From Eukaryota sp. GEM-RC1 (lineage: Eukaryota): a DNA stretch of 64,000 nt. The notes beneath the pieces are model-generated. The model was given only the letters and a program-made list of their open reading frames with translations. It was not told the origin of the DNA and did no database searches. The translations under genes were made by a program, and so were the position numbers. The DNA lies in NCBI GenBank assembly GCA_040285855.1, contig JAUFOQ010000016.1:2108001-2172000 (forward strand), written 5' to 3'. Below are positions 1,394-58,881 of this stretch, piece by piece; the first letter of the stretch is position 1, and the number at the start of each line of letters is the position of its first letter.

Positions 1394-1449
1394 AGATAAT
1401 TTATTAAATACAGATGTCTTTTGTTTTTCAAAATTTTAAATAATATACA

Positions 1450-22829: not shown

Positions 22830-24690
22830 TTATAAGAATGCCTTCAATTCAATCTTTCGCTCAAGTATTTTCTCTGAATTGGAACAACACTTTCCACCCC
22901 TTTACCATATTTTAAATTGATGTACGGATCTCCATCTGATCTTCTTTTCATTCTAAAGTAATTTCTTCAACAAGAGGAGTTAAACAAGGGGATCCTTTAG
23001 GACCCTTTTTCTTTTGTTTGGCTCTTCAATCCATTTTAGTTAAGTTTAAAGATAGATTTCCTGATATTCATTTGTGTGCTTACGCTGATGATTCTTCACT
23101 GATTGGTCCTTTAAGTTCTCTTAAGGATGGTTTAAAACATTTTGTAAGTTTATCTCAATCAATTGGTTTAGAAATTAAACTACCTAAATGTTTTCTTATT
23201 GGTAAGCGGTTTGCGGAACTTATGTATGGTGAGCAATCTATCCAGTTTGTGGACTATAACACTGAAGCTGTCCGTTTTTTGGGTTCCTATTTTGGCAATT
23301 CTTTGCAGATTGAGAGTGTGATCAAGAATTATCTTCAGAAAATCAAAGTTCAATTGCAGACTATACAAGATCTCAAGATCGATAACCACTTGGCTTTTTC
23401 AGTACTTTCGGTCTGTTTTGGATCGAAAATCAATCATCTTCTTATATCTTTACCATCTGAGCTTTCTCTTGGTTTTGCTCGTGAGTTCAACTCTTTGAGA
23501 ACTCAATTTTTAGGGCATTTGGTTGAAATCAATTGTTCCAAAATTCCTTATCATGCCCTTTTCAGTTCAAAATTTGGTGGTGTTGGTTTTCAAGAGCTGA
23601 ATATTTATGTAAAAGTGCTTTCGTTGGTGGTATGAAGAACGTTCATTTTGAGAGTAAACTTCGGTTCGAAAATATTTTCGATTTAGTTGTAGACGGCTCT
23701 TACGCTTTATTGAACTCTTTGGAGGAGTTAGTTCAAGGTTGGCCTATTAAAGTATGGAACAAAAGTTTCCCGAAAAGCGTTTCATCTATTCCTGATAGGT
23801 CAATTGAATTTCTTCCTCTTGCTGTAGTTAAGTTACAGAATGCTACATTACTTGGGTTGGAAGACTTGGATTTTAGTAAAAGACTTAGTGTGACTAAGAT
23901 TGATAATCCCGTCTTTGCAGCTTTTTTATGTGACATTCAACAACCTAGACCTTTTGGTTTACATTTGAACAATGATGCTTGGAAGCAAAATATGCGTCTT
24001 CGTTTAGGTTTATTCCCTAGTGGTTTGCTAAATAATTCAATCTGTGTTTGCGATAATCGATCTACAGCCACATTTCGTCATGTTGTTAGTTGCAAGAAAT
24101 TTTTGCAATTTCGATCTGTTCTACATAACGCTGTTCGTGACGTTACTTATGAAATGTTCAAATCCTACATTTATAGTTGTAAAATTGAACCTCTTCTGAA
24201 ACATTATAGTGACAATAACGTGTTTGATTCTCGGCGTGGTGACTTAATTGCTCCTTTCCTGGATTCATCTCAAGTTGTGGATGATTTTACTGCAGTTGAC
24301 CCGTTTGCAAAAGTCTACCAAGATTCCATATTGAATGATTCGAATGGTCATCTGGAAAAGGCTGAACAACGAAAGTGTTCAAATTATGCGGATACTTTGC
24401 AGAAGCTTAATGAACATCTATATTCTAAGTTTTCATTTGTTCCATTTGCCATTTCAATTTTTGGTAATATTGGTCCAGCCGGTTTAAAGTTTTTCAGTGA
24501 TTTTAGTCTTTTATGTCGTTCTAATGGCAAGGTGTTTAATAGCGCTGTATGGATTAATCGAATTATGTTCGCTCTTTATAGAAGCATTCCCAAGTATTTA
24601 CCATTTATTCGAAATTGTATAGGGACAATTCTCGTGTTGATGTGGAGAATTTAACTTCTTTCATTTTCTGAATTAGTATGTATTAATTTA
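22830..24690 (+). mobile_element. CRE/SLACS-like non-LTR retrotransposon, 5'-truncated
   Basis: KNAFNSI, GVKQGDPLGP, AYADD, FLGS, GGVGF, C-x-C..H..C finger, RRGD..DFTAVD..EQRK REL motifs. Confidence 0.9.
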
Positions 24691-27600
24691 TTGTTGCAAA
24701 TAAACTCTCATATACAGTGAAAATACAAAAGGGTACAACAAGTAATTCGAGTGTGAAGCCGAATTCAATAATTTCAATTTAGCACAATATTTTTGCATTT
24801 TAAATTTTTCACCAATAAACAAGGGGTTTTTAGCATTAGATTTAGCAAGTTTCTTGTTGGAATCATTACAAACATCGATAGACATAACATCAGCAATAAT
24901 GAAAGATCCGTCAAGACCAGGAAATATGACATCACCGCGGCTATTTCCAAACGATTTGTCAACAGCTGTATCATCAAACAAACCAGCCAGAACTGGTTCT
25001 AAAAAGGAAACTATTCCACAAGATTTACACATACAATAAAATTGATCCCTTACTGAATCATGAACCTTACTTCTAAAAGAAATAAAACGGTTACAATTCA
25101 ATAAATGTGTAGGTGTTACAGATTGCCCACATTGGCATTTCAAATTATGTGGAAGGTTATCAGGCCAAATATATGACCGTAAACGCATGTTTAATGACCA
25201 AGAGTTATCATCAAGACGAAGACCGTAAACTTGAGGGATTTGAGTAATCAGACATGAAGCAGAGCTATTAGAAACATCCATTAAGAAATTTGCAAAAGCG
25301 GGATTTTTTTCCTTGACCATACCAAGTCGAACATTATAATCCAAGCTTTCAAAAATATTTGTGAGTTTCTGTTGTAATTTTTTCAGACAGAACTGAAGAT
25401 TAGTCGAAGATCTTTCAGGTATTTCAGACACAGATTCTGGGAAACACTGAGACCAAACGTCAAAAGGTAATTTGATTAACGCTTCGTTTAAGTCAAATAA
25501 ATATTTACATGAATTGGGGTTAATAACGGAAATATCCTTAGGAGATCGATTAACAAATTCAAAGATGAAATTTTTCCACCGCCTAAAAAAGCAGATTTGC
25601 AAAGAATTGATGATTTGGTAAAACCAATACCACCAAAATGAGCAGAAGTAAACAAATGACTCCTAAGTAACGTTGAATCAACTTCTAACAATGAAGCAAA
25701 AAATTAATCCTCAACTCGTTAAAAGATCTACAAAAGTTCAGAGCGATTGAAGGAGCAATAGATCTCAAAAGATGTGTGATTTTTCCGGAGTAGCAAATTT
25801 TTAAAATAAAAAACTTGATATGTTTTTCAATATCATATGAAGAAATTGTGTTGAGTTCTGAACCAATTTTGTCCAAACAATTAGATAATTCTTGAGAAAT
25901 TTTAGGAACATTCCCAAGCCAACATCCTAGAAAACGAAAAGCATCTTCAACATAATTGATAAATGGAATCTGAACTCCATTAATAAATAATTTTTGGGCA
26001 GATCTACCAATTAATACACATTTGTCTGGGTTCAGAGATAAACCTAATGTTTCATAAATATCAGCCTCTTCCACAGCGACTTTTTTTAACAATTCAAGTG
26101 GACCAATAATAAGAATATCATCCATATAGCCAACTATCTTAAGGTCCGGGTATTTTTTTACAATACACAAAAGCGAATCATGAATAGCCAAACAAAAGAA
26201 AAAGAGGACCAAGAGGATCTCCTTGTTTGACACCAGACATAGATTTCAATGAATATGAATCATAAATTAAATCGCTTGGTTTTCCATAAAATAAATAAAA
26301 GTAGGATGTCAACTCAAGAAAGTCTTTTTCAATAGCAGCAAAAACAGATTTACGACTGACTGAATTAAAGGCATTTTTAAAATCAACATTAAAAATGAAA
26401 TTATCATCATGTGAATTGAAGAACAAATTCGATGTTAAGGCAGCAACAGAAGCCCCGTCATTTGTCTTAATTCCAAATTGAAATGGAGACAAAAAGCGAC
26501 CCGCTTTATCGACCACTCGATTAAACACAATTGATGCGAATAAACGAGAAATTGATTCTCCAACTGCAATTGGACGGATTCCATCAGGCTTAATTCCGTT
26601 ACCTGGTTTTACTAAAGCAATAAGTCGAGCAGCAGTCAATTCAATTGGAGGAATAACTTTCAAACAAACCATCTGTTGAAAGTAATTAGCAAGATCTTTA
26701 GAAATTTCTGGAGCTGCCTTGCAAGCAGCTTTCAACAAATCAAATGAAATGCCTGAAGGTCCAGCTGCTTTACCTTTAGGAAGTCTAGCAATAGCATTTG
26801 CAACTTCAGTTGGGAAAATAGGATTATCAATCCAGAATTGACAAATTTGAAATTTAACGCACAAAAACTCTTCTTTTGGATACAAGTTGACCAATTTCTG
26901 AACCGTTTCAGAATTTGGAATAGCCATTGCTGAAGAAAAGATAGACTTAACTCCAGAACCATAACGACCACGAAGACATAATTTTCCGACGACCTTACGG
27001 TTGGAAAATGATTTAGCCTTTTCAGAACTTGATTTCCTTAACATCCTTTTGTTCTTTTTGGCAAAGAACTTCCAGACCCTCGTGATGTTCCACCGGTTCT
27101 GGTTCAGGTTTGAAGTAAAAGATTGTAATTCCATAGCAAGAGGAATAGAAGCCGAAGGACTGGATTCAACTGGAATTTTGACTGGACAACGTAAAGAATC
27201 GATCGTTGTACAAGATTTACAAAAAAGAAGGGGTCTACCATTAAACACATCAGTCACAATTTTATGACAAAAGGGCAACTAGAAGAATTTTTAGTCGCTG
27301 GTTTTTCTTTCAAGTCACTAACTGAAGCAAGAAGTAAGTCAGCGGAATCAAGGTCTTCAGAATTAGGAGTATCAAACGAGTCAAGGTCAAGAGATGAATT
27401 GAGAGAAAAGGAATCAGACTGAAGTTTTAACTGTTCTTCTTTGGCTACTGGACATGTTGTTATACAATGGCCAGACTGGCCACAATTAGAACAACACCTA
27501 GAAGTCTTAATTGGTTTCAATGAAATTTCTTTTACAATTAAATCAGGTTGAACAGGAGGGTCAACAACATCACAGGAAGCTTTAAACTTCGAAGAGCGTG

Positions 27601-29439: not shown

Positions 29440-30575
29440 TAGACCTTGGAATCGGATTTTTTATCTCAAATCCGATCCGATCCGAATCCGACTGATCGAA
29501 ATCTGAATCCGATCCGAATCCTGGTGTTCAATATCCGAATCCGATCCGAAAAATCCGATCGGATTTACCATTTTACCTAATACATTTCATTGAATCTGTC
29601 TTTACTGAAAAAATGAATAACAAAATTGAATTAAGATTTATTAGTCAAACAGCAACACTAATTATCATCATTGGGAAAAAGTCCATCATCAGCCATAAAT
29701 CCAAGTTTTGTCCATGAATTGAGTAAAACCAAAACTTGAACTGTGTCACATTTGAGCGAAGCTCTTTTTCGGATACAATTAACCCAGCACGGGAAAAGAG
29801 TCTTTCACATGGTACAGACGATGCCTGTATTGAGCAATAATCGAAGAAGATTCTAGCAAGTGTTGGATAAGTGGTTTCATTTCTCTAAGATATTCCAGTC
29901 TGGTTGCCCACACTTGGAACACGTTCTTCTCCCAGAAGAAAGAGTATGAATGAACAAGTATACTCTACTTCGTTTCCCCTCTGGGAGTTTCTTCAAAGAG
30001 CAGTGCCGATGGCCAGTTTTCTTTCATAGAGGGAATTAGTTGAAGCGTCTTCTTCGTTTGGTGAGGATCCAGGAGGAAGAATTAAGAGTTGGGGAGAAGG
30101 TTGGATATCGATATCAGATAGAGTATCTTCAGAGGAGGATGATAGGAGGACTTCGCTGTTATTGGTGACAGAATCCGAGAGGACGTCTACATCGGAATAG
30201 TAAGACATTTGAAACAGATGTAGTTACCGAATTTACTTGATTCATACTCAACTGTCATCCTTTCAAATCAATCGTTTTTAAATACTGTGTGATATTAGTC
30301 AAAAACGGGGTTTATGATCACTACAGTGAAATAATTGTTTTTGTAAAAATAATAACTAAAAGTCACCAATATATCATTATTAGTATTTGTACAGTAATCA
30401 GATGTATTTTGCGTCCACAATAATACCATAATCATAAAAAATCCGATCGGATTTTTCGGATCTGGTAGGATAAATCCGATCCGAATCCGAATCCGAGCAA
30501 AACCCAGAAAATCGCTCCGATCCGAGAAATCCGATCGGATTATCCGATCCGAAGTTGATCCGATTCCAAGGTCTA
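29440..30575 (-). mobile_element. Non-autonomous hAT element
   Basis: TIR tagaccttggaatcggat / atccgattccaaggtcta, perfect 8-bp TSD caatctac, ATCCGA subterminal repeats and a hAT dimerisation remnant (YPTLARIFFDYCSIQASSVPCERLFSRAG, ~29785-29875). Confidence 0.92.
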
Positions 30576-31575
30576 CAATCTACCCTCCCATTATGACCAA
30601 ATTCTCACTGTCCGACTTTTTGTCTTCCCTTAACCGATTCCCTTACTCCAAATAAACGTTTCCTTTTTCGTATCTTCGGTGTCAACATCATCGTGATCTC
30701 TTTCGTTCATGTTTTTGATGGTTATCATAAACAAAACTCACATTTTGACTTCACATATCTGTCTCCTATTGCTACAACATCTTTGATGGCTCACGTGTTG
30801 TTAATTATCACTTGGCTAACACAATCTCATGTGTTCTGGTCAGATCTTATTCCTTATAATCTCCTCCCCCTCGAACCACTCTAGATCATGTCAAACAATG
30901 TTTTGGTCTTGTCTGTGGAGGAAATTTGTGTTGAGAGAGAAGCTCTCTCAAAAACAGTCACTTCCCCCTCAATAACGCCTTTTCAGCATTCCTCCTCCAT
31001 CACAATCACCAGAAATTCTATTGTGCACTCGTACGTGCATAGTTCTCTCCTAATTGAATGTTAGTGAACATTTTTTCCTCCAAATAACGCTTATCCACTT
31101 GCTGTGAGTCATAGCACCTCATCCTCTCCCTAGATAGGCGCTTTGAAAGTTATTGCCTTTCTTTTATCGCGATCTGAAATCCTGTACCAGATCATTGCTT
31201 TGGTGATCTTAGCCTTTACACTTTCTCTTTATAGTTGTTATCTGTTGATAAATGCTGAAAGCAGCGGTCAAACTCCCTGTAGCAGTTCATATTCATCAAA
31301 ATTGTCACGGTGTCTCTTTGATTTTGCCCAAACATCTGTTCACCTAACTGGTGATAGATCCAGCTCCAATTCTCCCTTCAATAGACACACGGTTGTCTTA
31401 GCTTGTTGTTTTATTTGTTATAAACGATCGTCGATCGCTGTTCATTCTGTAAAAACCAAACCCTCCGAATAAGACTGGTCTGACACCTGGTCATATTGGG
31501 AGGGTAGACTGTACCCATATTTAGAGACATGTAAGATTAATAGCTTTTCCATTTTCGACATTCCATTGCACAACA

Positions 31576-37659: not shown

Positions 37660-37928
37660 CTTACCTGACTTCGATTTCTTCGATGATGTGTAGGGAAAGT
37701 CTCTTATTACTTTGGCAGACGATTTTACTTTACAAATAAAAAACTCTTTTCACAAATATTGATTATGATCCTTCAATCTGAACTCGGGCCAATTTCTCTT
37801 TTTGAAAGAAAACTCATAATCCTAGATAATTCATGACACAAAGAAAACATTAAGATATTAAAAAATGAAACGGCGAACAAGAGAAGAACGTGAATTTATC
37901 AGTGTTATACCATAACCGAATTTTCAAA

Positions 37929-38651
37929 GATTCTGGGTAAATGCACCACATTATGCACCACATATTCTATTTATTTTGTAAACTGCACCACATTCATAAT
38001 GCACCACATTAATATAACCACACCACACATCACCAGTCAACATTAGGTACCCTGATCAACACGAATGTTGAACATTGTACAATTGTGGATTACTTAAGAT
38101 CCTTGGAAGGCAGATGTTCTTTCAGCAAACAGAATGTAACTAACATCAAGAAAAAGAGAACACAGAAGACTAAACTTACATCGTTCCAGAGCATGTAGAT
38201 GACCAAAATGACCTCATTTGTATCAAAGAACTCAAGGGATTTGTTACCTCTTAAAAGCTGGTTACAGATCGAGAACAACTGTGTAATAAAACATGGTAAT
38301 CTCTGCCAAACAACCTAGACGAAGATTACTTAAGGCAACAATTATGTTCTCTCCTTCGCGAGCTTCCTAACCTCTGCTTCCTGTTGCACGTAGACCTTGG
38401 AGAAGACTTCCTGGATCTCCCAATTAGAATCCATTTAAGTCTGCTCTTAGAGATCCGTCCTCCATTGAACTATCTGTTAGGCGTACAAGAATTCCACCTA
38501 ACAAGGCCAAAGATAATGTTTTGTCCTTTTGATCTATAAATGGTGTTTGCTGTGCCTTCTGTAAAATGAAAAATATATTATGTGGTGTAAGTTATATTGT
38601 GTGGTGCAGTTTACAAAATAAATAGAATATGTGGTGCATTTACCCTGAGTC
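37929..38651. mobile_element. Non-autonomous Mutator-like element
   Basis: About 60-bp TIRs (gggtaaatgcaccaca..tattctatttattttgtaaactgcaccaca) and a 9-bp TSD attttcaaa/tttttcaaa with one mismatch. Confidence 0.8.
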
Positions 38652-38874
38652 TTTTTCAAATGCCATGCGCCTATGGGTCATGGCTTTCGGACGCATGGCG
38701 CATTGGCAATACTGCGCATATGAACACATGTCGATAAATCCCGTATTACTGGTTTGCATTTGCAAATCTGTTCTCATAAACTACCTTACACTTCATCAAT
38801 GCGCGAAACTCATCCCACCGACTGATAAAAGTAATGAGAAAAGGGTTTTTGAACAAAAACAGTCAAAAAAAGGT

Positions 38875-41582: not shown

Positions 41583-42097
41583 ATGTTTTTGAAACCCAAA
41601 CTCGCTCAAGATGCGCTCTTCACGCTTTAAACAACTTTTTCCAACGTTCTGAAGTGTCATTAGATGAATTAGAAGCCATTGCTGCTTCTCTCTCACCAAA
41701 TTCTTTATTTTCCCCACATCATTCTTGGTTCAAATGGGGAAACTATGATATCAACGTTATTTCCATTGCACTGCAAAAACGAAATTACTGTATTGAGTAC
41801 TTCGACAAACGTTTACCTCTGAAAGACATCTTTTCCAGTTCAACCACCTCTTCCGCCCTTCTCCTGAATTTCCGTTGCTGGTCAGACTTCATTCCATTCA
41901 AAAAAACCCGTCATTGGGTTACTATACTATGTAAACAAGATGACTGCTTCATCAACATGGATTCCAAACTAAGAGAACCTCTGTCACTTAACAAAGAATC
42001 TCTACTAGAATATCTGGAATCTCTTGAGGATTTACAAGTTCTTGTCATTAAACAAGAGCTTGATTCTCATCAAGACTGTAGTTTAGAAGAAGCGTAA
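41583..42097 (+). CDS. Josephin-domain deubiquitinase (JOSD1/2-like); probable missing T in T5 41586-41590
   Basis: In frame upstream of ORF 41654: ETQTRSRCALHALNN (catalytic Cys), then GNYDINVI, RHWVTI and NMDSKL. Confidence 0.85.
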
Positions 42098-42741
42098 CAT
42101 GAACGTTGAAGATCCAGGTGGATTAGCACTGCGCTGGTTGATTCTAGCAGATGAACAGTATTGTCACTAAAACCACAGGGAGAAATGATGATCATTTTGG
42201 CTGCAAAATGAAGAAACAAAAATAAAACTGTTAAATTGTCAATATTTGTAAGGAGAATCGTTATACCGCCAAACAATGACATCATGGACAATGGGAATAT
42301 GAAGTTAAATGAAATCAAATGGATTGAAATTGAGCAGTTTGAGATTAAAAGAAATAATATAGAAGTGACTAAAATACCAAAAAAGAAGCGACACAGACCA
42401 TTGGATAAACTAGTAGGTCGATGTTCAACTGCTGATACCACAGCAGAAAGTGTAAGAAGAAGTGTAGTAGTTAAGGACGAGAGACGTGTCCAGTAGTGAT
42501 GAAGTGATGACACAAAGAAGAGCGAGTGTAAAAGAAGTAATGAAGAAAAACGCCACACTGAAAACGACAAGTTCTTGTGCATTTTGAGAAGGAGAACTAG
42601 GGAAGATAAATGACAGAGAACGGTGAGACATATGTGACCAAAAGAAAGAAAACAGACCAAATAAGCCAGAGCTACAGCAAACAATGCTTCAATTGATCGG
42701 GGTAGGTAAACTTCTGGTCTTATCTGATGCCTAGAGTGCAT
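42070..42741 (-). CDS. Multi-pass membrane protein, unknown function
   Basis: 223-aa ORF with several long hydrophobic segments. Confidence 0.6.
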   Translation of the reverse strand: MHSRHQIRPEVYLPRSIEALFAVALAYLVCFLSFGHICLTVLCHLSSLVLLLKMHKNLSFSVWRFSSLLLLHSLFFVSSLHHYWTRLSSLTTTLLLTLSAVVSAVEHRPTSLSNGLCRFFFGILVTSILFLLISNCSISIHLISFNFIFPLSMMSLFGGITILLTNIDNLTVLFLFLHFAAKMIIISPCGFSDNTVHLLESTSAVLIHLDLQRSCYASSKLQS

Positions 42742-43844
42742 AAGTAGTTTTCATTTTGGGTGAATATCCCCACACACCCAATTCCCACAAACTCTTTTTA
42801 CTTATGGGATATACTTTTGGAATACTTTGGGACTCAAGACTCGACTTAACGAGCATGTCTATCCACGCTTCGGAAGACACCAAAGTGAGGGATGTTTGGT
42901 CCTATCTCTGGATGGGGACGATCCATCTTCTGATGAGTCATCAGAGACTCTGATGATGCTTCTGTGAGGATCCTCTTGCGTGAATTTTATTCCCCTTCCC
43001 TTTCCTCTCCCCAACAATTCCCCCATCTCCTCTTCTGTGGTCTGTTGTGTCCTTTTATACATGCCATTATCCTTCCTAAGGTTATCTGAAGTACAATCTA
43101 GTGCAGAACTTCACTTCCTTCGTATTCAATCGAGGTAGCTTCTTTCTTCCATTAAAGTAAGTTGAAGTTGTATTTCCCATATGTGATTTTAAATTTCTGA
43201 GATAAATATTGTTTATTCGTAATTAGAACCAACCAATGTGTGCTGCAAATAGGGATCATTACCTACCGATATATTTGTCTCGCAAAGGCAGTTGCTTCTG
43301 CAATTTCCAATTGTTTAGTAATATAACCATTGGGTTTTTAAGACTGTATATCATTGGTCTATCGCACAGTAGCAATAATCAGTCATATAGAATGCTTAAA
43401 GAGAGGACTGGATGTTGTCACACTTGTTTTCAAGGTGTTTGAGAGAAGTCAAAATGAAGTAAAAGTAGGAACAAAGGAAGATCTGATGATGGGGACTGAG
43501 TGTTTCTAAAAGGAAGACGAGTCTTGAGTTTCTGGCAAAAGACTTCTGATCATTGTAGCCTGAATAGAGACCGGAAAAGGCGCATCTTAAAAGATAGAAT
43601 CGTGAATGAAACTAACATGAAGATATTCTGAGAGAGTGAGGTATAATGACTAAAATTGTTGAGAGGAGGTAAGATAGTTGTACACCGTATCTAGAGAAGG
43701 AGACAAAGTTTTGCCATAAATTAACCGAGTTGTAAAGTGGAAAGTAAACTGTTGACAAACTAACAATCAAGTAGGAAACTGAATCCTGTCGAGAGGAAAG
43801 TGACGAGAACGAATCACAATGTCGACAATTGTTATTTCCTTCCC

Positions 43845-44790
43845 ATGTCTCCTGTCAGTCTTCCCGAAGTAGTTCACGGCCCGGAGTATACACTTTATCC
43901 TTGTGGTTCATCCTCTCACAACCATGGTGACACTATATTTCCCCCGCCTCTTAAGAAGTCTCACCTGTCTTCTGTAGATGACATCCCACTGTATTGCCTT
44001 ATTGATTTTAAAACGGTCATTACCGATAGTGAACGACTTACTCCACTCCTTTTCAATGTTAAGAAGAAATCTCTTCCGAAATGCACTACTACAGAATCTT
44101 CAACAGAAATTGTTTCTGAAGAACAAGAGGCTGCTGAAGTTCCAACAATCAGTGAAGAAATTGAAGTGTCCAGGCCAGAGCTGGTACCAAATGCGGAGGA
44201 TGATCAAATCATCCTTATTGTCCTCACATTTATTTACACCAATTTCGTTTCTACTGTTGTCATCAGTACCAAAAAAACAAGTGATTTTGATGGTGTTCAA
44301 ACAATTACTTTTCCATCAGAAGAAGTCATGATTAATGGTCTTATATCTTTACTGTCCGAGAAAAAGCCTAGATTGCTTATAAGTTATAACTCTGAAAAAT
44401 TTTTGTTCCCGTTTTTAATTGCACGATGTAAACTTTGGAACATCTCCACCACATTTAATGTGGATAGGCCATTCAGGCCTTTTATTCCCATCTGGTTCTA
44501 TAGATGGTGTAAGCAAAGCGAATTTGGACCATTTATTTCCCTTAACATGACAAATGTTGTAAAGTCAACCTATGTTTTCAAAGGTGGTAGAGGTTTAGAA
44601 AATGTTTGCTCCAAATTGTTTCAAAAGGCAATACCTAATTTATTTTTATCACCAACTGAATTCAAACCTTACTTCCAACCAATTCAAAAAAATCCTAAAA
44701 ATATCAACGGTTAGCCCTGAACGGAAGAGGGAGTTTACTTTGCTTGCTCAAAATATTAAAACTTCCAAGTTATGGATGGATGACAGAAAA
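43845..44790 (+). CDS. Degenerate family-B DNA polymerase 3'-5' exonuclease-like domain (probably the N-terminus of the Fanzor ORF)
   Basis: Motif order matches PolB Exo: LIDFKT (ExoI-like), DDQIILI, FPSEEVMI..KPRLLISYNSEKFLFPFLIAR (ExoII YNxxxFDxPxLxxR-like), ISLNM..GLENVCSKL. Catalytic Glu and Asp are substituted. Confidence 0.65.
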
Positions 44791-44859
44791 CGCAACTCTC
44801 TGGTTGAAGATTTGCTGAACAAAATTAAGATGTTGTCCGAATTGAAGAATTATTTTTTG

Positions 44860-47701
44860 ATGAAGAAATTCAGCTTGTTTTAGACCGCCCTCCGATTAAA
44901 GTCGTAAAAAAAGGATTGGATAAGGTTTTCAGAGATTATGAAAACATTCAATTAATTAAAATCTGTTCTAAACGAAATCAAAAAAGCAACTGTGAGGGGG
45001 AACCACCTTCTTGAAGCATTTGCTTCTACGTGAATTTGAAGATTTTGGAAGAATCGAAGCTGAATCAATAGTCAAAGAAAGAGAATTGATGTTACTGCAC
45101 GATGACCCTTCGTTGTCCATGATTGGAAATGATTCTGAGTCTTCTGAGAATTGTAATATCTGCTATAATTACAAAGACTTTTCGGTTCGCTTACCAGATT
45201 TGAGTCCTTTTTTGGCTCTTGGATCAATAAGGCACGTTCTCCGACGAATGTATGTGGAGAAAAAAAGGCTTGCGGTATTTCCGACTTGAAAATGTCAAAA
45301 ATAGAAGCAGAAGCAGTTTTACAAAATGAAAAATTTGATCATTCTTTGGAAACAAAAAATCGCATTGCACTACTGTAATAATTTTTATCCAATTCTTGAC
45401 TCTCTGTCTCATGAAATTGGAACTAACAACATTTCTTTTCCTAATTTGGATTTTATGTCAGGCATTTATCATTATACGGCTAAACAAATTGAAACCAATT
45501 ATGCTAACAATTTGGCGAAATACTTCCACAACTATGTCTTTCGCTACTTTAACATTGTTACGTTGAAGAACTATCGTCTTAAACAAATTAAAGAGCAACA
45601 CTTAAAGAAGGAATTGAAATCAAAATTAAATTCCATCAGAGAACTGATTATTGATGGAAACTTTGAAGACATTCCAATTGATGATCATATCATTTTCCCC
45701 TTCCCGCAATCAGAATTGACTTTAATCTTTTTTGCATATTTGAAATTCTGTTTGTTCCCTACCATTGCCAAAGGCAAGAATCTTTACTACGCTCAGAAAG
45801 TCAAGCCACTACAATTTCTTTCTCATGCTGTTTATATCAACAGAATCATTCAGTCTTTTTGTTCAATTGATGGAAAACCCTTAAAGGTTAATAATCCGTT
45901 CCCAATGACCAAGACGTTGCTCCCACAGCATATTAGATTAGATACTGCTTGGATAAACCAAAGAGTTTTAAATTTGAAAGGTTCCGCTAACGTTATTCGA
46001 AAGGAAGTATTTGACTCTGTACTTACCTAAACTGCTATTACATCATCAGGATCATTTGGTCTGAAGTATTCTTCGATTGTAACAGATGGCATTTCCTGTT
46101 CCTTGGTTATGATTCGAAAAGATTTGCTGGATGAAAACGGTAACACCTTTGAAGATTTTACCGCAAAACCACTAATATCTTCGGAAAGATATATTGACTC
46201 TTTAACGTCGGAAGACATTGAAAAAATGAACCTGACAGAAAAGAGAATAATTGGCATTGACCCGAATGAATATGACTTGATGTTTTGCGTATCTCCAAAA
46301 ACAAATGAAGAGATATTAGTTGAAGAATTTTCTTGTTCCGACAACAGTCCCACGAAAAAACGGCTACCTTCAGAAATGAGACTGAAACAGAAAGGTGGTA
46401 TTAAAAAAAGAAAAAAACAATTGAACCAATGGAGACAAACCCCATCTCAACGAGTACGACTGAAACCAAACCACTTTTTGACCAGCTTCAGGTACAGTAC
46501 TGGGGAGAGATCATATGACCGAAAAAGCAAGAAATATCGGTTGACTGAAAGAAGAAAACTAAAAACTTCCTTCTTTGAAATTACGAAAACAGAAACTGAA
46601 AGATCGCTCCAAGATTATACAGTCGAAAATTCTAATGGTAGAACTGTTTCTGGTCAAGAAATCCTCGACGAATTTGCTCTTGCCGTCTCTAGAGGACAAC
46701 AAAGGTCCAGTTTCAGTGATGAGTTCGAGACTTACATCAAAGAAGCTGAACGGAGTTGTGTATACCTGAGTGATTTCTATGAAGACGATTGGTTTACGAA
46801 AAGGAAGTTTCAAATTTATTCCAACAATCAACAGAGTGAAAAGAATATGTTGGAAAGGTTTAAATTAACCTATGGATCTCCAGAAGACCTTGTCCTTGGT
46901 TACGGGGATTGGAGTTCTAAGGGAAACACAAGAAAAGGTAAAACTCCAGCTATTAGAGGAGCAGAAATCCGAAGAATGTTAAGAAAATTCGGGTATAAGG
47001 TATTTCTAGTTGACGAATACCGTACCAGCAAGTCCTGTTCAAAGTGTGCTGCTCAAGGACTATTTGGATTATGTACAAATGATCCATCTATCAAAGTTTT
47101 AGGCCCAAGAGGACTGCGTCAAATAAGACGGAAGAAGAAGAAACTCAAGGAAAAAGTACTGGTCTACAACCGTAAGGATCCACCGAAAAAGAGAAGCTTT
47201 GAGGACGAGTGGGAGAAGATAAAGAAGTCCGTAGAAGTAAAAGCAAAGTCAACACCATGGGGGCTGGTAAAATGCAAAAGGTGCAAGACTTATTGGAACA
47301 GAGATCTCAACTCTTCGATAAATATCTATTCCATTATCGAAGCCGCCATCAAAGGTCAAGCTAGACCATCTATTCTCGAGAGATCAAAAACTTTAACAAC
47401 TGATTTCGAGAGTGGTAATGTTACTTTGAAGAGAGATCGAAAAAAGACTGCAGCGAAAAAGACTCGTAAAGAAAGAGAGTGTGGAGAATGTGGACAAACA
47501 GGTCACGACATACGAACATGTCCACAGCTAGATGAGTCAAACCAGGGTTCACCTAAAACTGGATCGAGAAAAAGAAAAGGAGGAACCCCAACGAAGGCAG
47601 TCAAAAGAAGAAGATCTCCCTTGAAGAAATCAGTCCACCATCAACGGTCGGGCAGCGCTATGTGTATGAAGCTATCTCAGTCTCACCGTATCATCTCATA
47701 G
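44860..47701 (+). CDS. Fanzor1 (eukaryotic TnpB-like RNA-guided RuvC endonuclease); disrupted in this sequence by homopolymer frameshifts and one in-frame TAA at 46028-46030
   Basis: IETNYANNL..YFHNYVFR, PFP..LPQHIRLDT, IVTDGISCS, RuvC-I IGIDPN (46259), YGDWS (~46904), RuvC-II VDEYRTSKSCSKC (47012), CKRC and RuvC-III WNRDLNSSINI (47303). Confidence 0.92.
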
Positions 47702-47815
47702 CATAGCGTGTCTGTGATGCCTAAATGGATATGACCAAAGTGGGAGCAGGATTTACTTTGGGAGGATTATCCATTTGGAATGAACTTCACAGATGGAACA
47801 TGAACAAACATCTAG
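47650..47815 (+). ncRNA. Putative Fanzor omegaRNA (scaffold plus guide)
   Basis: Stems cgctatg/catagcg and tatga/tcata span the stop codon; nested stems tctgtga/tcacaga, aaatggata/tatccattt and ccaaagt/actttgg follow. This 3'-end position is canonical for TnpB/Fanzor RNAs. Confidence 0.7.
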
Positions 47816-47846
47816 ATTAATTTTGCAAAATTCGTTTTCCAACAAT

Positions 47847-49175
47847 ATGATTGACATTTGGCTTCTTCGTGATGATAAGGATGGTAATTCTGAAGCTGTA
47901 AGGGAAAGTCAGCGACGTAGATTTGCTGATGTCACTCTTGTTGATCAGGTTATCGATAAGGACAAACAATGGCGTGAATCGGTTGTCAAGAAGGAGAAAC
48001 TTCGTGCTGAGCTCAATAGAACCTCCAAGCAAATCGGCAAACTTGTCAAGGATGGTGAAGACATCACTGAACATCGAGCTACTGTTGCCTCTCTAAAACT
48101 GGAAATCACTCAATTAGACGCTTTTGAAGCCACTCTTCTTTCAGAACGTGATGAAATACTTAAAACCATTGGCAACATTGTTGAGCCCCAAGTTCTTTTC
48201 TCAAACAATGAAGAACAAAACCGTGTCATCTCAACCTTCTCTTCCCCTGAACCCCGCGATCACCCTGCTACCCACAGTCATGTCGACCTTCTCCACATGA
48301 TCGGTGGTGTTGACTACGAACGTGGAACAAAAGTTGGAGGAAGCCGTAGTTATTTCTTGACTGGTCCCGGAGTCAAACTCAACATGGCTCTCATCATGTG
48401 TGGACTTAACTTCCTATCTGATCGGGAATACACTCCCTGTCAAGTTCCTTACCTAGTCAAACCAGAAGTAATGGCAGCTACAGCTCAGTTGTCAGACTTT
48501 GATGATCAACTCTACAACGTAGGTTCAGATAAGGATCTCAAGTATCTCATTGCTACTTCAGAACAGCCTTTGTCCGCTCTGCATCAAGGGGAATGGTTAG
48601 CACCTCAGGATTTGCCAAAGAGATATGCTGGTTTCTCTACTTGTTTTAGGAAGGAAGCAGGAACTCATGGAAGAGATACGTTAGGAATCTTTAGAACTCA
48701 TCAATTTGAAAAGGTAGAGCAGTTTACAGTCACGGAACCTTCTAAATCCAAGGAAATGTTTGATGAGATGATTGGTAATGCTAAGGACTTTATGGAGCTG
48801 TTAGGTCTTCCTTATAGAGAGGTTGAGATTGTTTCAGGTGCATTGAACAACGCTGCAGCTGTTAAACATGATGTTGAAGGGCTTTTCCGACATTCTAATG
48901 TCTATAGAGAACTGGTATCGTGCTCAAACTGTACGGATTATCAGTCAAGAAGACTTGATATTAGGTATAGAAGTGCAGGAAAGTCTGGATCTCTTAAGGG
49001 GCAGGCTAAAGAGTACGTTCATTTGTTGAACTCAACTTTAACGGCTACTGGAAGGACCCTTTGCTGTATATTGGAGCAGTATCAGACCCCTGAGGGTATT
49101 GAGGTTCCAAAGGCATTGGTTCCTTATTTTGGATCTGACTTTATTCCGTTTGTCAAGGCTCCACTGAAGAATTAG
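47847..49175 (+). CDS. SARS1: Cytosolic seryl-tRNA synthetase
   Basis: MIDIWLLRDDKDGNSEAVRESQRRRF, YLIATSEQP, CFRKEAG..GIFRTHQFEKVEQF, ELVSCSNCTDYQSRRL, HLLNSTL. The conserved start is ATG 47847. Confidence 0.97.
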   Translation: MIDIWLLRDDKDGNSEAVRESQRRRFADVTLVDQVIDKDKQWRESVVKKEKLRAELNRTSKQIGKLVKDGEDITEHRATVASLKLEITQLDAFEATLLSERDEILKTIGNIVEPQVLFSNNEEQNRVISTFSSPEPRDHPATHSHVDLLHMIGGVDYERGTKVGGSRSYFLTGPGVKLNMALIMCGLNFLSDREYTPCQVPYLVKPEVMAATAQLSDFDDQLYNVGSDKDLKYLIATSEQPLSALHQGEWLAPQDLPKRYAGFSTCFRKEAGTHGRDTLGIFRTHQFEKVEQFTVTEPSKSKEMFDEMIGNAKDFMELLGLPYREVEIVSGALNNAAAVKHDVEGLFRHSNVYRELVSCSNCTDYQSRRLDIRYRSAGKSGSLKGQAKEYVHLLNSTLTATGRTLCCILEQYQTPEGIEVPKALVPYFGSDFIPFVKAPLKN

Positions 49176-50329
49176 ATTTTTAAAAAATGTTAGGTTTTTT
49201 TGTTTTTGAAAATTAGTGTTAAACTTTATATTTACTCATTTGTTTTTGTGGTGTGTTTTCATTACCTAGACTTAGTCTTTAGGGGAGCTTGATTGTAAGT
49301 TAATTTGAAGTACCATAAATTTTTACAACATTTGTTTGTGCTGTACTTCTGTTATTAAGATGACATTTTATCCAGATTGACATCAAACTGGCACAGTTGC
49401 CGCCTTTGTGTTCTATATTTGTTATATCGTCGAGGTCCTAATACAAGCTTAGTAGAGGGTATGCTTGTATAGTTTCACAAAATAAACTCATAGATTTCTT
49501 TTTACAAAAACTGATCTCTATATAATACCGGAGAGAGTCATTTTGGAATTATATATAGATTTCATTTACTAGTTACATAAGCCCTTAGCCATTATAATTT
49601 GAAAAAAAAAGACTGGAACATCTGATGGACGAGCCTGTAACGCAAGATAAGCTAAACTTCAAGGAAACAATGATATTGAAGTTTGTCAATTTTTACGGCA
49701 ATTATATTTGTTCTATAGACATTAGCTTTAGGGAAGCGTTTGATCTCAAGGTGGTCGATAATTTACCAGATTAACGAAAACCTGGTTTATTTTGGTTTGA
49801 TTAATCTACCTCTCTGTCAGGATTGATCAGCATACTTCAAAAGTAACTGATTGATGTTATTAAGTTTCCATTTCAATGGTAGTGATTTTGTAATGATAAA
49901 AATTTCATTTTTCAAAACAGAAATTCAAAGGACTCTAATACCTAGGCCTTTTTTATTACCACCATATTCAAATTGAGATTAATGGATGTCGCAGCGGTAG
50001 AGATCGAAGTATACACCACCTGTTCTCAGACGATCATTTAAAAAAAATTTAACATCAAAAAGTGCCAAAAATAAATGTAAAATATATTTAATTAAAACAA
50101 AATATAACCCAAATACAAACAAAATATGTATTTGTTCCGTTTGGTGCCTAAGTTCTTTAAATCAATTTTCACAAAGTTGTATAAAGACTGTGGTACTGTT
50201 GACCAGGAATTTTCGGTGTCCAGTGTTTCATAGCTTTTATTATGATATGTATTTTTGTACCCTCCATCAATAAACTGTTCTTTAAATATAGTACTAGTAC
50301 AGAAAGGGATGATCAAATGCATTGTGTGT

Positions 50330-53300
50330 TCATCTATGGAAACTGCGAGAAACTGTACTAGTACTGATTTAAAGAACTTAGGCACCGAACGGAACAAAGA
50401 AAAAATCAAACGGTTATGCCAAATTGATAAGTTAAATCTCTTATTCTGAGTCTTACACATAGATCCAAAATCAGTTAAAAACTTGGAAGCCATTTCACCA
50501 ATACTATCGAAAATAGAAATAGCAAATGGAACAAATACAAATTTTGAATATACATTTTGATTGAGTTTAGCAACATCTTTGGAAGAGAGATGTTTATTCG
50601 GCACCCAATAAGGTAACCTTCCTACAAACTATGAAATTGTAAAAACAAACAAATTATACTAAGATTAAATCCAAACGACTTCATCACCACGCGGTAAAAG
50701 ATTACGTTTATCAACATTAACCTTCACACCAAACTTGTACAATTTCTCAATTAATCTAGAGAAATAGAAAGGCATGTTCCGATATAAGGAAAACACTATA
50801 CGGTTTTTCCATTCAGCCATTCTAAACTTACGCTTCTTTTCTTTACACAATTCATCGAAATCCTTGAAAAATTGATCACCAGCAGGACTAATAGATCCAA
50901 AAGAGAAACAGCAAAAGGTTGAAACACAAATTTGGAATATGAGTTTCTATTTAATTCTTCTACTTGAGAGTCATACTTGGAGTGTTTGAGCTTTTCAGCT
51001 GCTGTTAATGGATTAAAAGAAGAATCTAATATCCTACTAACACAAGATTTGTTACATACATCTACTGTAGTAAAATCCATAAATGATTGACTCGACTTAA
51101 GCCACGGAGTATGTAGATCCCCTCTTTTTGATCAGTAAATTCATTTTCTGAAAGATGATTCAAAACTGGTTCAACTTTAGAGTGAAAACCATGTGCTTTA
51201 AACATGGAATAACAAGAATCACGTACACCATCATGAATTACTGCACGGAGATGAATAAAATAACGACAATTAATTAAATGACGAAAAACACCATTAGCTG
51301 CACAAGAGCACGTTGAATAGTTTAAAAAATTTGCAGGCCAAATAGCCAAACGAAGACGCATATTGATCATCCAAGCTTCATCAGATAGATGTAATCCATA
51401 CACCTTTGGAATTTGAGAAATAAATCCAGAAGGACCACTATTACAAAGATCGATTAAAAAAGCAGCGAACTCGGGACTATTAGTTTTAGCCAAGCTAATA
51501 CGATTATTAAAGTCCAAGAGTTCAAACTCCTTGTCAATTTATTTTGCAGCTTACATACAGCAGACGGTACAGATGAAATATTTTTAAAGGAGTCTCCTTC
51601 AAATGAGCAGGGAACAAAGATTCCCACATTTCAGGAGACAAAGATGATACCAAATCTTTAGCAGATTGAATCCAACGGCAATTACTGGAATTCAACAGAT
51701 TGATTCCATCCAAGGGAAACCGTTTCAAAAATTCAAACATAAAATTCTTAACACCTCCTAAAAGAGCAGATTTTCTAATGATTTTTGCATGGGTGAAACC
51801 TACTCCTGCGACTTCAGAAGAATAAAAAGCATGAAATGGAATCTTAGACTCATCAATTTCAGCCAAGTTAGAGAGAAAATTTGTTCTAATAGAATTAAAT
51901 TTCTTGGCAAATGTTTCAGTAAGGGAATAGTCTAATGAACGTAGAAAATGATTAATTTTCCCGGAAAAACAGAAAACAAATCAATTTTACGTTTTTCAGC
52001 TGTTTCTAGGTGATTAAAACCTTTTGAATTCAAGCCATTAACATAAGTTTGAGCACATGGATCTACTGTTGTAACATCAAGGATAATTTGACTAGAATCA
52101 ACAAAAGGACCATGTAAGTCATCTCGACGAGAATTATTAATTAAATCAAGACCCAACTTACTAAATAAAGGTTCAACTTTGGCATGAAATCCATGAGCCT
52201 TAAACATTTCAAATGTAACATCTCTTACAGCATTATGAAGAACTGAGCGAAATTGAATAAATTTGGGGCATTTAATTACACGTCTAAAAGTTGCACTGCG
52301 ACGATGGTTACAAATGCACTCAGAATTGTCCAGCAATTCTGTAGGAAACAAACCTAAACGCAATCGCATCTTTAATTTCCAAGCCTCATCAGACAAATGC
52401 AAACCAAAAGGACATGGTTGTTGAGTGATCAAACAAGTTCAATTCTTAATATCATTTAAGAAAGCAGCAAAAACGGGATTATTAATTTTAGTAATACTAA
52501 AACGATTTTCAAAATCCAGGTTGTCAAATGCCTTCAAAAGCTTATTCTGAAGTTTGACCACACATAAAGGGAGAGACAATGGAGATTTTTCAGGAATACT
52601 GGGTAAATGAGAATGAAAACAGCTATTCCAAATATCCAAATCCAAATCGTTAATAACTGAGACTAACGAAACTAACCAAGGAGTAGACTGAATGAGATTT
52701 TCAGTAAACGAAAAGCCGTATCTGGATTTAAATTCAAATAGAAAATTCTTCATTCCACCAATAAACGCACTTTTGGTTAAGTATGAAGCTCATGAAAAAC
52801 CCACACCGCCAAAATTAGCTGATGAAAACGCGTGATAAGGCAATTTCGAGTCATTAACATCTACAAGATCACTTAAGAACTTAGTTCTCAAAGAGTTAAA
52901 TTTGCTGGCTAAATCAATAGTAAGTTCAGGATTGACTGAGCGCAAAAAGTGATTGATTTTGGACGCAAAACAAGTCGTCAATAGGGAAAAAGAAATATGT
53001 TTACCAATTTTCAGCTCACCAATCTGTTTAAGCTTCACCGAAATTTGTTCGATGAATTATCCACCTTCAAACGTAATTGATCGCCATTACCAATGAAAGT
53101 ACCCAAAAACTTAATAGCATCGACACTATAATTGGAAAACGGAATAGTATGCCCTTCAACAATGAACTCAAAAGGTGATGAACCGATCAGAAAACATTTT
53201 TCATAATTCAACTGAAGACCAATCTCATTAGAGAGCTCTATAAATACTGGAAAAGCTGATAATAAATCATCAATAGATCCAACTAAAGAAGCATCATCAG

Positions 53301-53450
53301 CATAAGCACACAAATTCAAAGAAGGGAACTTCCTTTGAAACTTACGAAAAATTGACTACAAAGCCACACAAAATAAAAATGGACCAAGAGGGTCGCCTTG
53401 TTTGACTCCACGTTGGGAAACCAGATTATCAGAATTATAAATTAGATGAA
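50330..53450 (-). mobile_element. CRE-like RT-REL retrotransposon (53450-~51970 plus ~50590-50330) interrupted by a second CRE-like copy (~50594-51940)
   Basis: GVKQGDPLGP, AYADD, GGVGF and REL ..LETAEKRKIDLF resume as SKDVAKLNQNVYSKFVFVPFAISIF. The inner copy has its own REL and a 3' UTR matching 78-520. Confidence 0.85.
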
Positions 53451-54027
53451 AAGTTAGATGAAAAAAAATTGTTTTATTTTGTTGTAAATGTATTTGCATG
53501 TTCGTGAAAAATTGTCAAAAATACAAAAAATGTAAATAAAGTATACTGAATTGTAAATACATGTAGTATGTATTACTTCACTGTTGCAAATATACTCTAA
53601 ATAACATAAATCAATAGAAATTAAATATATTTATGAGGAGCCCTGGTATACATCATAAACCAATAAAATAAAATTAACAATGCGTTCTAAACTGTCTACA
53701 TGTACTACACCCGTTGGATAGATTCTAAAACGAGGGTGGCACTAAATCGAGGAAAGATTGTACAGTCTGGATCAGTTCGATGACGTCATCTACCTGGTCC
53801 AGACCAACTCCAAATTATTAAAACACATTCCTACATGTCAAGGACTTGTAGACTTCATCTTCATTTGTGGATCACAACGTATTTTGAAAAAATAATCGCG
53901 AATAATGCAACAGTCCCGAAAATTCCATTCATACAGAATTAACTGAACATCGGCGGTTATAAACAGGTATAATAAGAGACATAAGATACAAGATTTTTAA
54001 AAGAAAACTACAAGGACTAACTGTGCT

Positions 54028-55816: not shown

Positions 55817-56347
55817 ATTTGGAGTCGTTGTTTTATTGATTTTACATCGAAATTTGATAAATTTATATGGTATATTAAATATACTTTTGGTAATATTGGT
55901 CCAGCCGGTTTAAAGTTTTGGTAATGGTTATACTAGTAAGTTTGAAAAATTTCAGTTCCAATTTGTTCAGCTATGAGTTACAAGTACACCACACGTTTGC
56001 GGTTATTACAGTCTGAAGCAGGTTACACCAACGCAGCATCTAAACGAATACTAGAATATTCAATCACAATTCTGATGTATTGTATTCAAAAATTGGCAAA
56101 TGACAATTAGCACATAGTGAGTGCTTTAACATACTTCGCACTGAGTGCAATTGGTAACTTAGCGTAAATGTTATAACAAAATGTGCTTCAAGAAATGGAC
56201 GGCTAATGCTTGCTTAATTAAACGCTGCTTGCAATATCCTAAGAATAACTAAATTTGTACCATCCAAAAGGTGTCTAGTTTTCTCTTAATAGAACCAATG
56301 TTTATTTTTCTAATATAAGATATTAGTATAATTGACAGTTACTACTA

Positions 56348-58238
56348 CAGTATTCAGAGTATTTAGTCTGGATAAACAATTAGTCTGGACTTTAATTAGT
56401 CTGGTCCAGACTAATTCATGTTTAAATCTCTTTCAAAAGGTCATTTTTAAACAACAATTAGTCTGGTTTTCACAATAAAGTGCAAATACACTACACTACA
56501 AAGATACATATGTATTCAGGGACTGTCAAAAATATATTGCAATATATTGCAGGGCCAAAAAGATTTGCAATACAGTATTGCAATACTGCAATATATTGCA
56601 ATAATTGGAAGCAATATAAATATTGTTGAGTAAATTATTTATTGTACTAATTCCATCAATAAGTCATAAGATCATCATTAGGCATCATCCAAGTTGACTA
56701 GTTTCTGACTGACCATCTTGCGAACCAAACTAATGTCCCAAAACTCTCTGTTCACAGAAAGAAATAGTTGATTGGCAAGTCTTCGATCAGATAAGTTGTG
56801 TCGTGACATCCCTTGCGCCATTCGAGCTTTATTCAAAAGTCGTTCTACTGCATTTGAAGTTGTTGGGATGAACTTTAAATTGCAGTAACCTACTGTTTCA
56901 CCTCTCATTCGAGTAAAGACATCTTGAACAGAGGAAACAGGTCCAGGTCGTTCATCAATTTCTTCCTCTTCATCATCATCACTATCACTACTCACATTAT
57001 TTATTATTACTTTACCATCTAAAGATGACGACAATCGAGATTGACCAGCAACTATTTCAATTTCATGTTCTTTAAAACACTTAACCATAACTTCTTCCTC
57101 ATCTGTAAGACTCAACCCTTCATTCTTCAAGATTTTCAGCACTGCTGATTTGAAGATGAATTGGTTGGGTGGACATCGTGGAGCATCTACTGCGGGATAC
57201 ACGAGCTGTTTTTTCATCTCTTGATTTGCATTATATTGGCAAAATACGAGCATTGTTGATTTAAACAAATGCTCAGCATCCAATGAATTAGAATTCTCCT
57301 TTTGCAGTTGAAGACTGACAAATTGTAATTCCTTCATATGATGCATTAATAGAGTAATCCTCGTTTCTTCAGCGAAACTTGGAAGTAAATCAATCAGTTC
57401 ATCGTCTTCAACCTCATTGAGCATGTGGTCGATGGGCAATTTAAGTTCTAATAATCTTTTTATTAAAAAAAAGTTTTTAACATGTCATGAGTTGAATACC
57501 ATCTAGTAACATTACGTTGCTTTGGAGCTAACTTTGTGTAATTTCGGAGATTGGTAATTCGTGTCGGTTCTCTGAGAAGTTTCATCACCCGATCCAATAA
57601 ATCATCAGAGAAAAAATTGGTTTAAAAATATTGTTCAAAATTGAAATTATTGCAATATATTGCAATACAAAATGAGGCTGCAATACAGTATTGCAATACA
57701 CAATACACAGTATTGCAATTATTGCAAAAGTGCAATATATTTTTGACAGTCCCTGTATGTATTACAAAAAGAACTTTGATAGTTAGTGGACTGTGGTATC
57801 AGGTTTGAAAGCTACAGAACCCAGGAAAATACAACTTCTTGGAATTGGTAGAAGAAACTTTGAGAGAAGAAAACGGTTAAAGAGATGAAAGATGATTAAC
57901 ATATGCTCGTATAGCAATGATTCTTTGTGGATTGTCGTTAAAGACTAACGGAATGTGGGAAACGAGACAGTTGCAAGCATTCATAGCCAATTATCCAGAA
58001 GAATTTGAAGGAATGTTGCCAGACATTGTTTCTGACAGTGATTGGGTTTAAGGTAGATATAGTTAAATGTTTCATAGTTTTTCTGATACTACAAGTTGTA
58101 AAAAGTTGATCCAGATTAATTCTTTTTTATATTCAATAGTCTGGACTTAAATTAGTCTGGACCAGACTAATTAAAGTTTTTAGCAATAAATATCACACTA
58201 AAAATTAGTCTGGTCCAGACTAAATACTCTGAATACTG
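56348..58238 (+). mobile_element. Tc1/mariner-superfamily (pogo-like) deleted element
   Basis: TA-flanked TIRs cagtattcagagtatttagtctgga / tccagactaaatactctgaatactg, subterminal attagtctgg repeats and a transposase-like C-terminal remnant AMILCGLSLKTNGMWETRQLQ (~57915-57980). Confidence 0.8.
56517..57755 (-). mobile_element. hAT element with partial transposase, nested in the pogo-like element
   Basis: TIR cagggactgtcaaaaatatattgca / tgcaatatatttttgacagtccctg, perfect 8-bp TSD tatgtatt and ORF 56678-57439 with FIPTTSNAVERL..LFLSVNREFW. Confidence 0.93.
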
Positions 58239-58881
58239 TAGTTCAGTATGTAGGATATAAGAAAAACCGATTTATGTGCGGAGAAAGACACACAACAAGA
58301 AAACAACAAACAAATAAACACTATTAAAGAAAATTATCAAACGAACTACCTAATTCCGAAAAGCAGTTGCCTCCAAACAACTTTGACATGATGGGATCAA
58401 CATATCTATTCATAGACCTAAACATCGATTATAATAGGATATTGTCTACAACTAGTAGAATACTTTTTATCAAAAATGGGGATTATGCGAATGACGGCAA
58501 ACGAAGTCGTCTATGATGTGCAAGTGATACAACAAGAATTTGAGAAATATCGAAGAGAGCTTAGATTATTACTAGTAGTATTGATTTACTACTGTTTGAG
58601 ATGGTGTATACATAACTGTTATTTGTTTGTTCAAGCCAGCAAAAAGACAATCATTAAATAAACCTTTCTTCTTTGATTAAGTTTGGTTGCTCATTAATGA
58701 TACAGCTCTATTTTAGACTGTTATGATTAAACAACTTTCCCAATCAAAAGAATAGAAATGATACCAACATTTATGATACACAATTGACAAACAAACAAAA
58801 GAACTGATTCGTCTCTACAACAAGTACATTAGTGTAATAATGCACTTGACCGGCTCCTCAGTTATACCGGAAAAAAAATCT

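Follow-up and report, generated by a model that had tools for sequence, protein, structure and literature searches.

An omegaRNA scaffold is likely encoded at positions 47630-47794 of the window (the whole 64-kb stretch of DNA that was analysed), as the right end of a Fanzor1 element that is present in many copies. According to the predicted fold it is probably made of three stems and is about 164 nt long. The gene upstream is a Fanzor1, so an omegaRNA is expected at its 3' end, and a structured RNA is predicted exactly there, at the 3' end of the ORF and on the same strand. The features of the element and its flanks are collected in Table 1.

Table 1. Features of the Fanzor1 element and its flanks, in window positions.
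Feature	Positions	Strand	Remarks
Possible left-end region	42725..42993		four 8-10-nt words in common with the terminal stem (42725-42890)
PolB-type 3'-5' exonuclease domain	43845..45001	+	PF03104, E 2.6e-11; frame changes near 44677, 44853 and 44999
Fanzor1 WED/REC part	45002..46030	+	broken: frame changes near 45262 and 45350; in-frame TAA 46028-46030
Open C-terminal half of Fanzor1	46031..47701	+	TDG, RuvC D-E-D, C4 zinc finger; first ATG 46109
CCHC zinc knuckle	47480..47521	+	in a basic tail of ~100 aa past the RuvC end; seen in the translation
Likely SL1	47630..47653	+	stem-loop 47633-47653; pair probability 0.98-1.0; UC...CG spacing as in SpuFz1
Second stem (hairpin 1)	47655..47709	+	47655-63/47701-09 and 47665-69/47696-700; 26-nt loop; holds the stop codon
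Third, terminal stem (hairpin 2)	47710..47794	+	three nested helices extended by G-U pairs
Inferred guide	47795..47809	+	~15 nt, with a start that may shift by a few bases; non-coding, A-rich, ahead of the seryl-tRNA synthetase gene
Host seryl-tRNA synthetase, downstream flank	47847..49175	+	PF02403 from residue 1, PF00587

The Fanzor1 gene

A preliminary description of this DNA had called the upstream gene a Fanzor, and the sequence and fold matches in the PDB and the catalytic triad all place it in Fanzor1. The best PDB sequence matches of the ORF at 46109-47701 were SpuFz1 (E 1.9e-11), PpFz1 and GtFz1, and the same ORF matched PF07282 above the cut-off. Its RuvC triad is D51 (in a DPN motif, 46259-61), E303 (47015-17) and D399 (47303-05), and E303 stands six residues before a C4 zinc finger (C310/313/389/392). 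Yoon et al. (PMC10711439) give a DP(G/N) first motif and a Glu six residues before the zinc finger as the Fanzor signature. The TDG motif of the WED domain is at 46082-46090, in the same open frame and just upstream of the first ATG. Triad, zinc finger and TDG motif together identify the gene as a Fanzor1. The CCHC zinc knuckle in its tail is also found in 17 collected relatives from related protists. Elsewhere in the window, another zinc-knuckle-like stretch with a weak match to the Fanzor tail lies at 27437-27550 on the minus strand.

The preliminary description had missed that this ORF is actually the end of a much longer fusion of an exonuclease and Fanzor, which starts at 43845. The protein P0021 (1182 aa, a single ORF) aligns to positions 43845-47278 at 82-95% per segment, carries PF03104 (family B polymerase exonuclease) ahead of the Fanzor, and itself shifts frame before RuvC-III. 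Copies that are 94-98% identical encode the PolB-type 3'-5' exonuclease and the Fanzor1 behind it as one ORF. Of the 13 proteins in the nearest cluster, 12 are named as distinct genes of Eukaryota sp. GEM-RC1, a skoliomonad (PMC11316075), on six contigs. An AlphaFold model of P0021 had a mean pLDDT of 69.8, mostly above 80 in the Fanzor part and patchy in the exonuclease part, and matched the structures of PpFz1, SpuFz1 and GtFz1 at E 2e-17 to 2e-14.

The reading frame of the window copy is not intact: compared with P0021 it has five frame changes, plus the in-frame TAA at 46028. Four of the five frame changes are at runs of 5-7 identical bases, and nanopore reads underlie the assemblies of the named relatives (PMC11316075), so some of the breaks may be assembly errors. 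An alternative genetic code was considered for the TAA and rejected, as the position is Glu or Lys in the paralogues and long neighbouring frames follow the standard code.

An exonuclease fused to Fanzor1

The same domain order was found in single ORFs of 1399-1479 aa from Eukaryota sp. TZLM3-RCL (P0026, P0034 and P0182), so the fusion is not an accident of gene calling. The exonuclease part of P0034 was matched by 24 of the 209 collected proteins, all from these protists or the window, and by none of 159 distant Fanzor1 loci. A profile built from eight proteins matched the exonuclease regions of archaeal PolB and Pol delta in the PDB, with E-values down to 1e-9.

Active DEDDy exonucleases have three motifs: D-x-E at ExoI, N...D at ExoII and Y...D at ExoIII. 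All three are kept in P0034, P0182, P0184 and P0026. P0021 and the window copy have lost the catalytic motifs; they have D-F-K at ExoI and lack the ExoII Asp and the ExoIII Tyr and Asp. With the catalytic residues lost, the degenerate domain of this family would do no more than bind nucleic acid. In P0034, P0182, P0116, P0191 and P0192, all from related protists, the exonuclease is preceded by a D-(V/I)-E-x-N-P-G-P motif, which we take to be 2A-like, and P0116 has a Ulp1 protease domain (PF02902) between this motif and the exonuclease. No such motif was found on the plus strand upstream of 43845. Further Fanzor1 subfamilies with many copies and a zinc knuckle in the tail, two at least, are present in GEM-RC1, represented by the P0051 cluster (26 members) and by P0002, P0003 and P0030-32.

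A literature search that covered mainly openly accessible papers, without the survey supplements, brought up nothing on naturally occurring fusions of an exonuclease with Fanzor, nor on Fanzors of these protists. The main text of Bao and Jurka (PMC3627910) contains none of the terms 'polymerase', 'protease' and 'fused', and Yoon et al. (PMC10711439) use neither 'polymerase' nor 'fusion'. The exonuclease-fused family is apparently undescribed so far, and the omegaRNA itself appears ordinary.

The predicted fold at the 3' end

The two hairpins of the preliminary description consist of five helices, and each of these is perfectly Watson-Crick paired at its position, with no match at an offset of 1-2. 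The stop codon (TAG, 47699-47701) does sit in the 3' arm of hairpin 1, and hairpin 2 is indeed three nested helices extended by G-U pairs. Compared with 300 dinucleotide shuffles, hairpin 2 is more stable than chance (z about -4), both in its core at 47718-47780 (z -4.45, 0/300 shuffles) and at 47705-47800 (z -3.0, 1/300). Significance did not extend to hairpin 1 alone (z -0.48, 78/300) or to the whole interval first proposed (z -1.33, 33/300); at 47640-47830, z was -0.86. Across the 64 kb, 8 of 3044 windows of 84 nt had a raw energy below that of hairpin 2, and 27 of the 3044 did after adjustment for composition, which puts hairpin 2 in the top 1%.

The position, size and strand of the scaffold first proposed fit an omegaRNA, but its 5' end is probably about 25 nt farther upstream, where a first stem-loop (SL1) had been missed. 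This SL1 candidate, 25 nt upstream of hairpin 1, completes a fold of 47628-47796 with three abutting stems and pair probabilities mostly above 0.9 (0.7-1.0 in hairpin 1). The fold including SL1 had z -2.19 (3/200 shuffles). On the plus strand it has 9 G-U pairs and -52.6 kcal/mol, against 2 G-U pairs and -42.2 kcal/mol on the minus strand.

Saito et al. (PMC10432273) report that the SpuFz1 scaffold starts with U5-C6-C7, that C6 pairs with G20 of stem-loop 1, and that the guide follows directly after stem 2. Xu et al. (PMC11423790) describe an SL1 with seven pairs in three Fz1s, the remainder varying freely. In the distant relatives described below, UC(A) stands unpaired before SL1, and the loop of SL1 is flanked by CG on its 3' side. 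A strict descriptor of SL1, written after the candidate had been seen, matched 25 of 44 relatives, none of 170 control stretches, and two places in the window, including 47630. A looser descriptor, built from the UC...CG spacing of SpuFz1, matched 38 of the 44 relatives, none of the 170 controls, and 31 places in the window when both strands are counted. Nine of these are on the plus strand, and 47630 is the most stable of them; about 0.03 matches are expected by chance in the 115 nt that make up the expected location of SL1. Among relatives with a strict-descriptor match, nearly all have the start of SL1 within the ORF (-9 to 103 nt; 95 of 135 loci), and here it lies 72 nt inside. The linker from SL1 to the next stem is 1-2 nt here, compared with 6 nt in SpuFz1 and about 10 nt in the distant relatives.

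Positions 47596-47638, when translated in another frame, match the last residues of the Eukaryota sp. TZLM1-RC protein P0039 (5/2000 shuffles; the best match of 206 proteins in 3 frames each). This suggests that different species have homologous DNA at 47596-47638, with a one-base difference in the frame of the tail; it does not bear directly on the fold.

Distant Fanzor1 ends

A total of 159 distant Fanzor1 loci (L001-L159) were collected, 80 of them from 428 metagenome matches and 79 from the 80 top-ranking matches among 185 viral ones. Their pairwise alignments stop sharply past the stop codon, and 132 loci gave a boundary. In 135 of the 159, conservation ends at a distance of 17-123 nt from the stop on its 3' side, these being the loci with both a RuvC-III motif and the end motif, so that they were chosen by the end motif; hairpin 2 ends 93 nt past the stop. 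A structure was drawn by hand from 44 non-redundant ends: SL1, then a terminal stem which closes two hairpins. Changes on both sides were seen in 18 of its 25 pairs, more than in any of the slid controls. A terminal inverted repeat (TIR) of about 30 nt is visible in 18 of the 44 ends, and many of the others came without upstream sequence. Taken by themselves, L001-L159 are a large family of Fanzor1 right ends of about 115 nt, with a covarying SL1 and three-way junction and a terminal stem that is the 30-nt TIR. One of these loci, L018, encodes a Fanzor1 of 1098 aa (720-4016) whose RuvC domain is interrupted by a very long insertion of low complexity.

Three covariance models were built from these AT-rich ends without the candidate: R1 from a poor automatic structure, R2 from the hand-drawn one, which covariation supports on the relatives, and R3 from SL1 only. 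Neither the whole-end models R1 and R2 nor R3 matched 47630-47794, even at E 10, and blastn of both element ends against the 159 loci gave nothing below E 0.08. The scaffold is 164 nt here, against 100-127 nt in the distant relatives. A multiloop like theirs, pairing 47658-71 with 47785-96, was tried and kept as a minor option only (-45.7 against -52.6 kcal/mol). An Rfam search of 44500-48500 returned seven sub-threshold matches, none on the hairpins, and an exact 24-mer had no match in the metagenome contigs.

Element ends

A search for TIRs, and for duplicated target sites (TSDs), found none above chance; the longest exact inverted match was 8 nt and the best inexact one 15/20, as expected by chance for so many trials. 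No second or protein-less copy of the element was found inside the 64-kb window, and 42700-43860 has no long frame for a transposase. The possible left-end region, in which the words recur at 42725-42890, ranks first in shared 7- and 8-mers among all 200-nt windows of the 64 kb, and 1 of 150 control segments was alike, in a test chosen after the matches had been seen. Local alignment of the right end with this region scored 37-38 against a background of 35 +/- 5, so there is no colinear homology. Since the test was post hoc and the alignment is not colinear, this is only a hint that 42725-42890 is a left end with shared binding words. In the same region, 42929-42956 has an 8-nt word three times (forward, reverse, forward), so arranged that two overlapping palindromes result. 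Farther left, at 42070-42741 on the minus strand, a 223-aa hydrophobic ORF without a Pfam match was tentatively taken as the host gene of the left flank.

The recurring words leave some room for another account, in which the hairpins are only DNA-level end signals, that is, subterminal palindromes for an HUH enzyme, a tyrosine recombinase or another transposase acting in trans, and no guide RNA is made any more. This seems unlikely. Helitron2 elements with Fanzor1 do have hairpins at both ends (PMC3627910), and the other strong hairpins of the window are located at inverted-repeat ends. But the shared 7-10-nt words do not take the arrangement of a Helitron2-type asymmetric TIR, and the locus shows no TIR or TSD. 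The G-U pairs favour a plus-strand RNA, and the looser SL1 descriptor matches. A role in DNA would also be compatible with a role in RNA, as known scaffolds include the element ends.

The window has several short elements with inverted repeats of 24-40 nt (56344-58242, 37926-38654, 50131-50398, 29543-30462 and 30574-31513), likely non-autonomous DNA transposons, which have no ends in common with the Fanzor element. It also has dispersed, decayed repeats at 13934-14956, 22976-24504, 25276-26300 and 51168-53475. One decayed-repeat stretch reads like a reverse-transcriptase motif, which suggests non-LTR retroelements.

The proposed guide boundary

Downstream of the element is a seryl-tRNA synthetase gene of the host, and its orthologue P0209 starts at the same Met. 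A start at 47793 was rejected; the start at 47847 leaves 53 non-coding bases after hairpin 2. By analogy with known scaffolds, the guide would start at 47794-47797 (47794 +/- 2), at about even odds. A start just past the last stem would fit SpuFz1 and also the distant relatives, which are conserved up to the terminal stem and no farther. The G+C content is element-like (0.36-0.52) up to 47799 and then falls to 0.20 at 47800-47824. A comparison of the inferred guide with possible targets in the window was uninformative, with at best 12-14 of 15 matches, in A-rich DNA.

The boundary could instead lie at 47710, if SL1 and hairpin 1 (47630-47709, 80 nt) were the whole scaffold and hairpin 2 were flanking DNA. 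Such a size and two-stem layout would fit SpuFz1 (75 nt; PMC10432273) and PpFz1 (PMC11423790), but a top-1% hairpin would have to lie directly past the end by chance, and an end 8 nt past the stop is below the range of the 135 relatives, so we give this little weight. Equally improbable is that the fold arose by chance, or that it belongs to the host as a 3'-UTR or as a promoter element for the seryl-tRNA synthetase, with the Fanzor element ending near the stop codon: hairpin 1 and the whole interval first proposed are not significant, 27 windows score lower than hairpin 2, and R1-R3 have no match at the locus, but three consecutive high-probability stems lie exactly at the usual Fanzor1 scaffold position, and the G+C content falls only past their end.

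Proposed function

If 47630-47794 is an omegaRNA scaffold, the known Fanzor1s suggest how it might work. An omegaRNA of about 180 nt would be cut from the 3' end of the element transcript, SL1 would dock on the RuvC/TNB face of the Fanzor1, and the terminal stem would be placed where WED meets RuvC. With a sequence taken from the flanking DNA, the guide would target the element-free site just upstream of the seryl-tRNA synthetase, and a cut at this empty site would be repaired from the occupied copy, so that the element would be kept. Such restorative homing has been shown for TnpB and is only proposed for Fanzors, according to a review (PMC13565253). The Fanzor gene of this copy is broken, so its RNA would need a protein in trans, and could be loaded by the protein of another copy, as for the ghost loci of SpuFz1. 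The element would likewise be moved by a transposase acting in trans. The same general layout of Fanzor elements is described by Jiang et al. (PMC10530073) and by Bao and Jurka (PMC3627910).

Fusions of exonucleases with RNA-guided nucleases have been engineered by hand, whereas the fusion of a PolB-type exonuclease and Fanzor1 described here is natural and occurs in many copies. The natural fusions of related protists include both catalytically intact and degenerate exonucleases. With at least 12 near-identical copies and a predicted scaffold, the guide boundary, the TAM, the targeting of empty sites and the role of the exonuclease can be tested directly. We tentatively suggest, as a possibility that we still consider somewhat doubtful, a protist-specific class of Fanzor1: fused to a proofreading 3'-5' exonuclease that has kept its activity in some lineages, split off from a polyprotein through a 2A-like peptide, in some cases preceded by a Ulp1 protease and followed by a zinc knuckle, and using its own long three-stem omegaRNA. 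Such a class might cut and chew its target or trim its own guide, and might spread without TIRs or a transposase of its own.

Comparison with known systems

The exonuclease domain resembles those of family B polymerases such as Pol delta and archaeal PolB, by PF03104 and by the profile matches in the PDB. Unlike in those enzymes, no polymerase domain follows, and the exonuclease is joined directly to the first strand of the Fanzor.

SpuFz1, compared through its structures (PDB 8gkh, 9ceu-9cez), is the best sequence match (E 1.9e-11), has a fold TM of 0.72 by target, and has the same DPN, E, D triad (D383/N385 in SpuFz1; PMC10432273). As described by Saito et al. (PMC10432273), its RNA has a 5' UC, an SL1 with CG and a terminal stem before the guide, as predicted here. 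The Spu-1 element has no internal transposase, and none was found in the one here; broken or protein-less loci of Spu-1 can supply RNA, as the broken copy here might. The SpuFz1 scaffold differs in being 75 nt long with two stems and lying wholly past the stop, against about 164 nt, three stems and a 72-nt ORF overlap here. Spu-1 has 30-nt inverted repeats, whereas none was found at the ends of this element, and SpuFz1 lacks the exonuclease domain and the zinc-knuckle tail.

GtFz1 of Guillardia theta is akin by its description (PMC10432273, PMC11423790): its omegaRNA of 150 nt overlaps 17 C-terminal codons, and its element has no inverted repeats. It differs in having four stem-loops with packing of SL2-SL4, an Asn as third catalytic residue, and no fusion. 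The reRNA of the SfAV Fanzor1 (Yoon 2023, PMC10711439) is alike in its predicted three-stem fold without a pseudoknot and its non-autonomous element, and differs in having a clear TIR and TSD within the scaffold and a protein of about 600 aa.

The distant relatives L001-L159 (25-35% identical) differ in their three-way-junction scaffold of about 115 nt, their TIRs of about 30 nt (18/44), their proteins of about 670 aa and the lack of an exonuclease (0/159). What they would have in common with the element described here is an SL1 that matches the same descriptors inside the end of the ORF, and a 3' boundary at the terminal stem, which is sharp in the relatives and predicted here.
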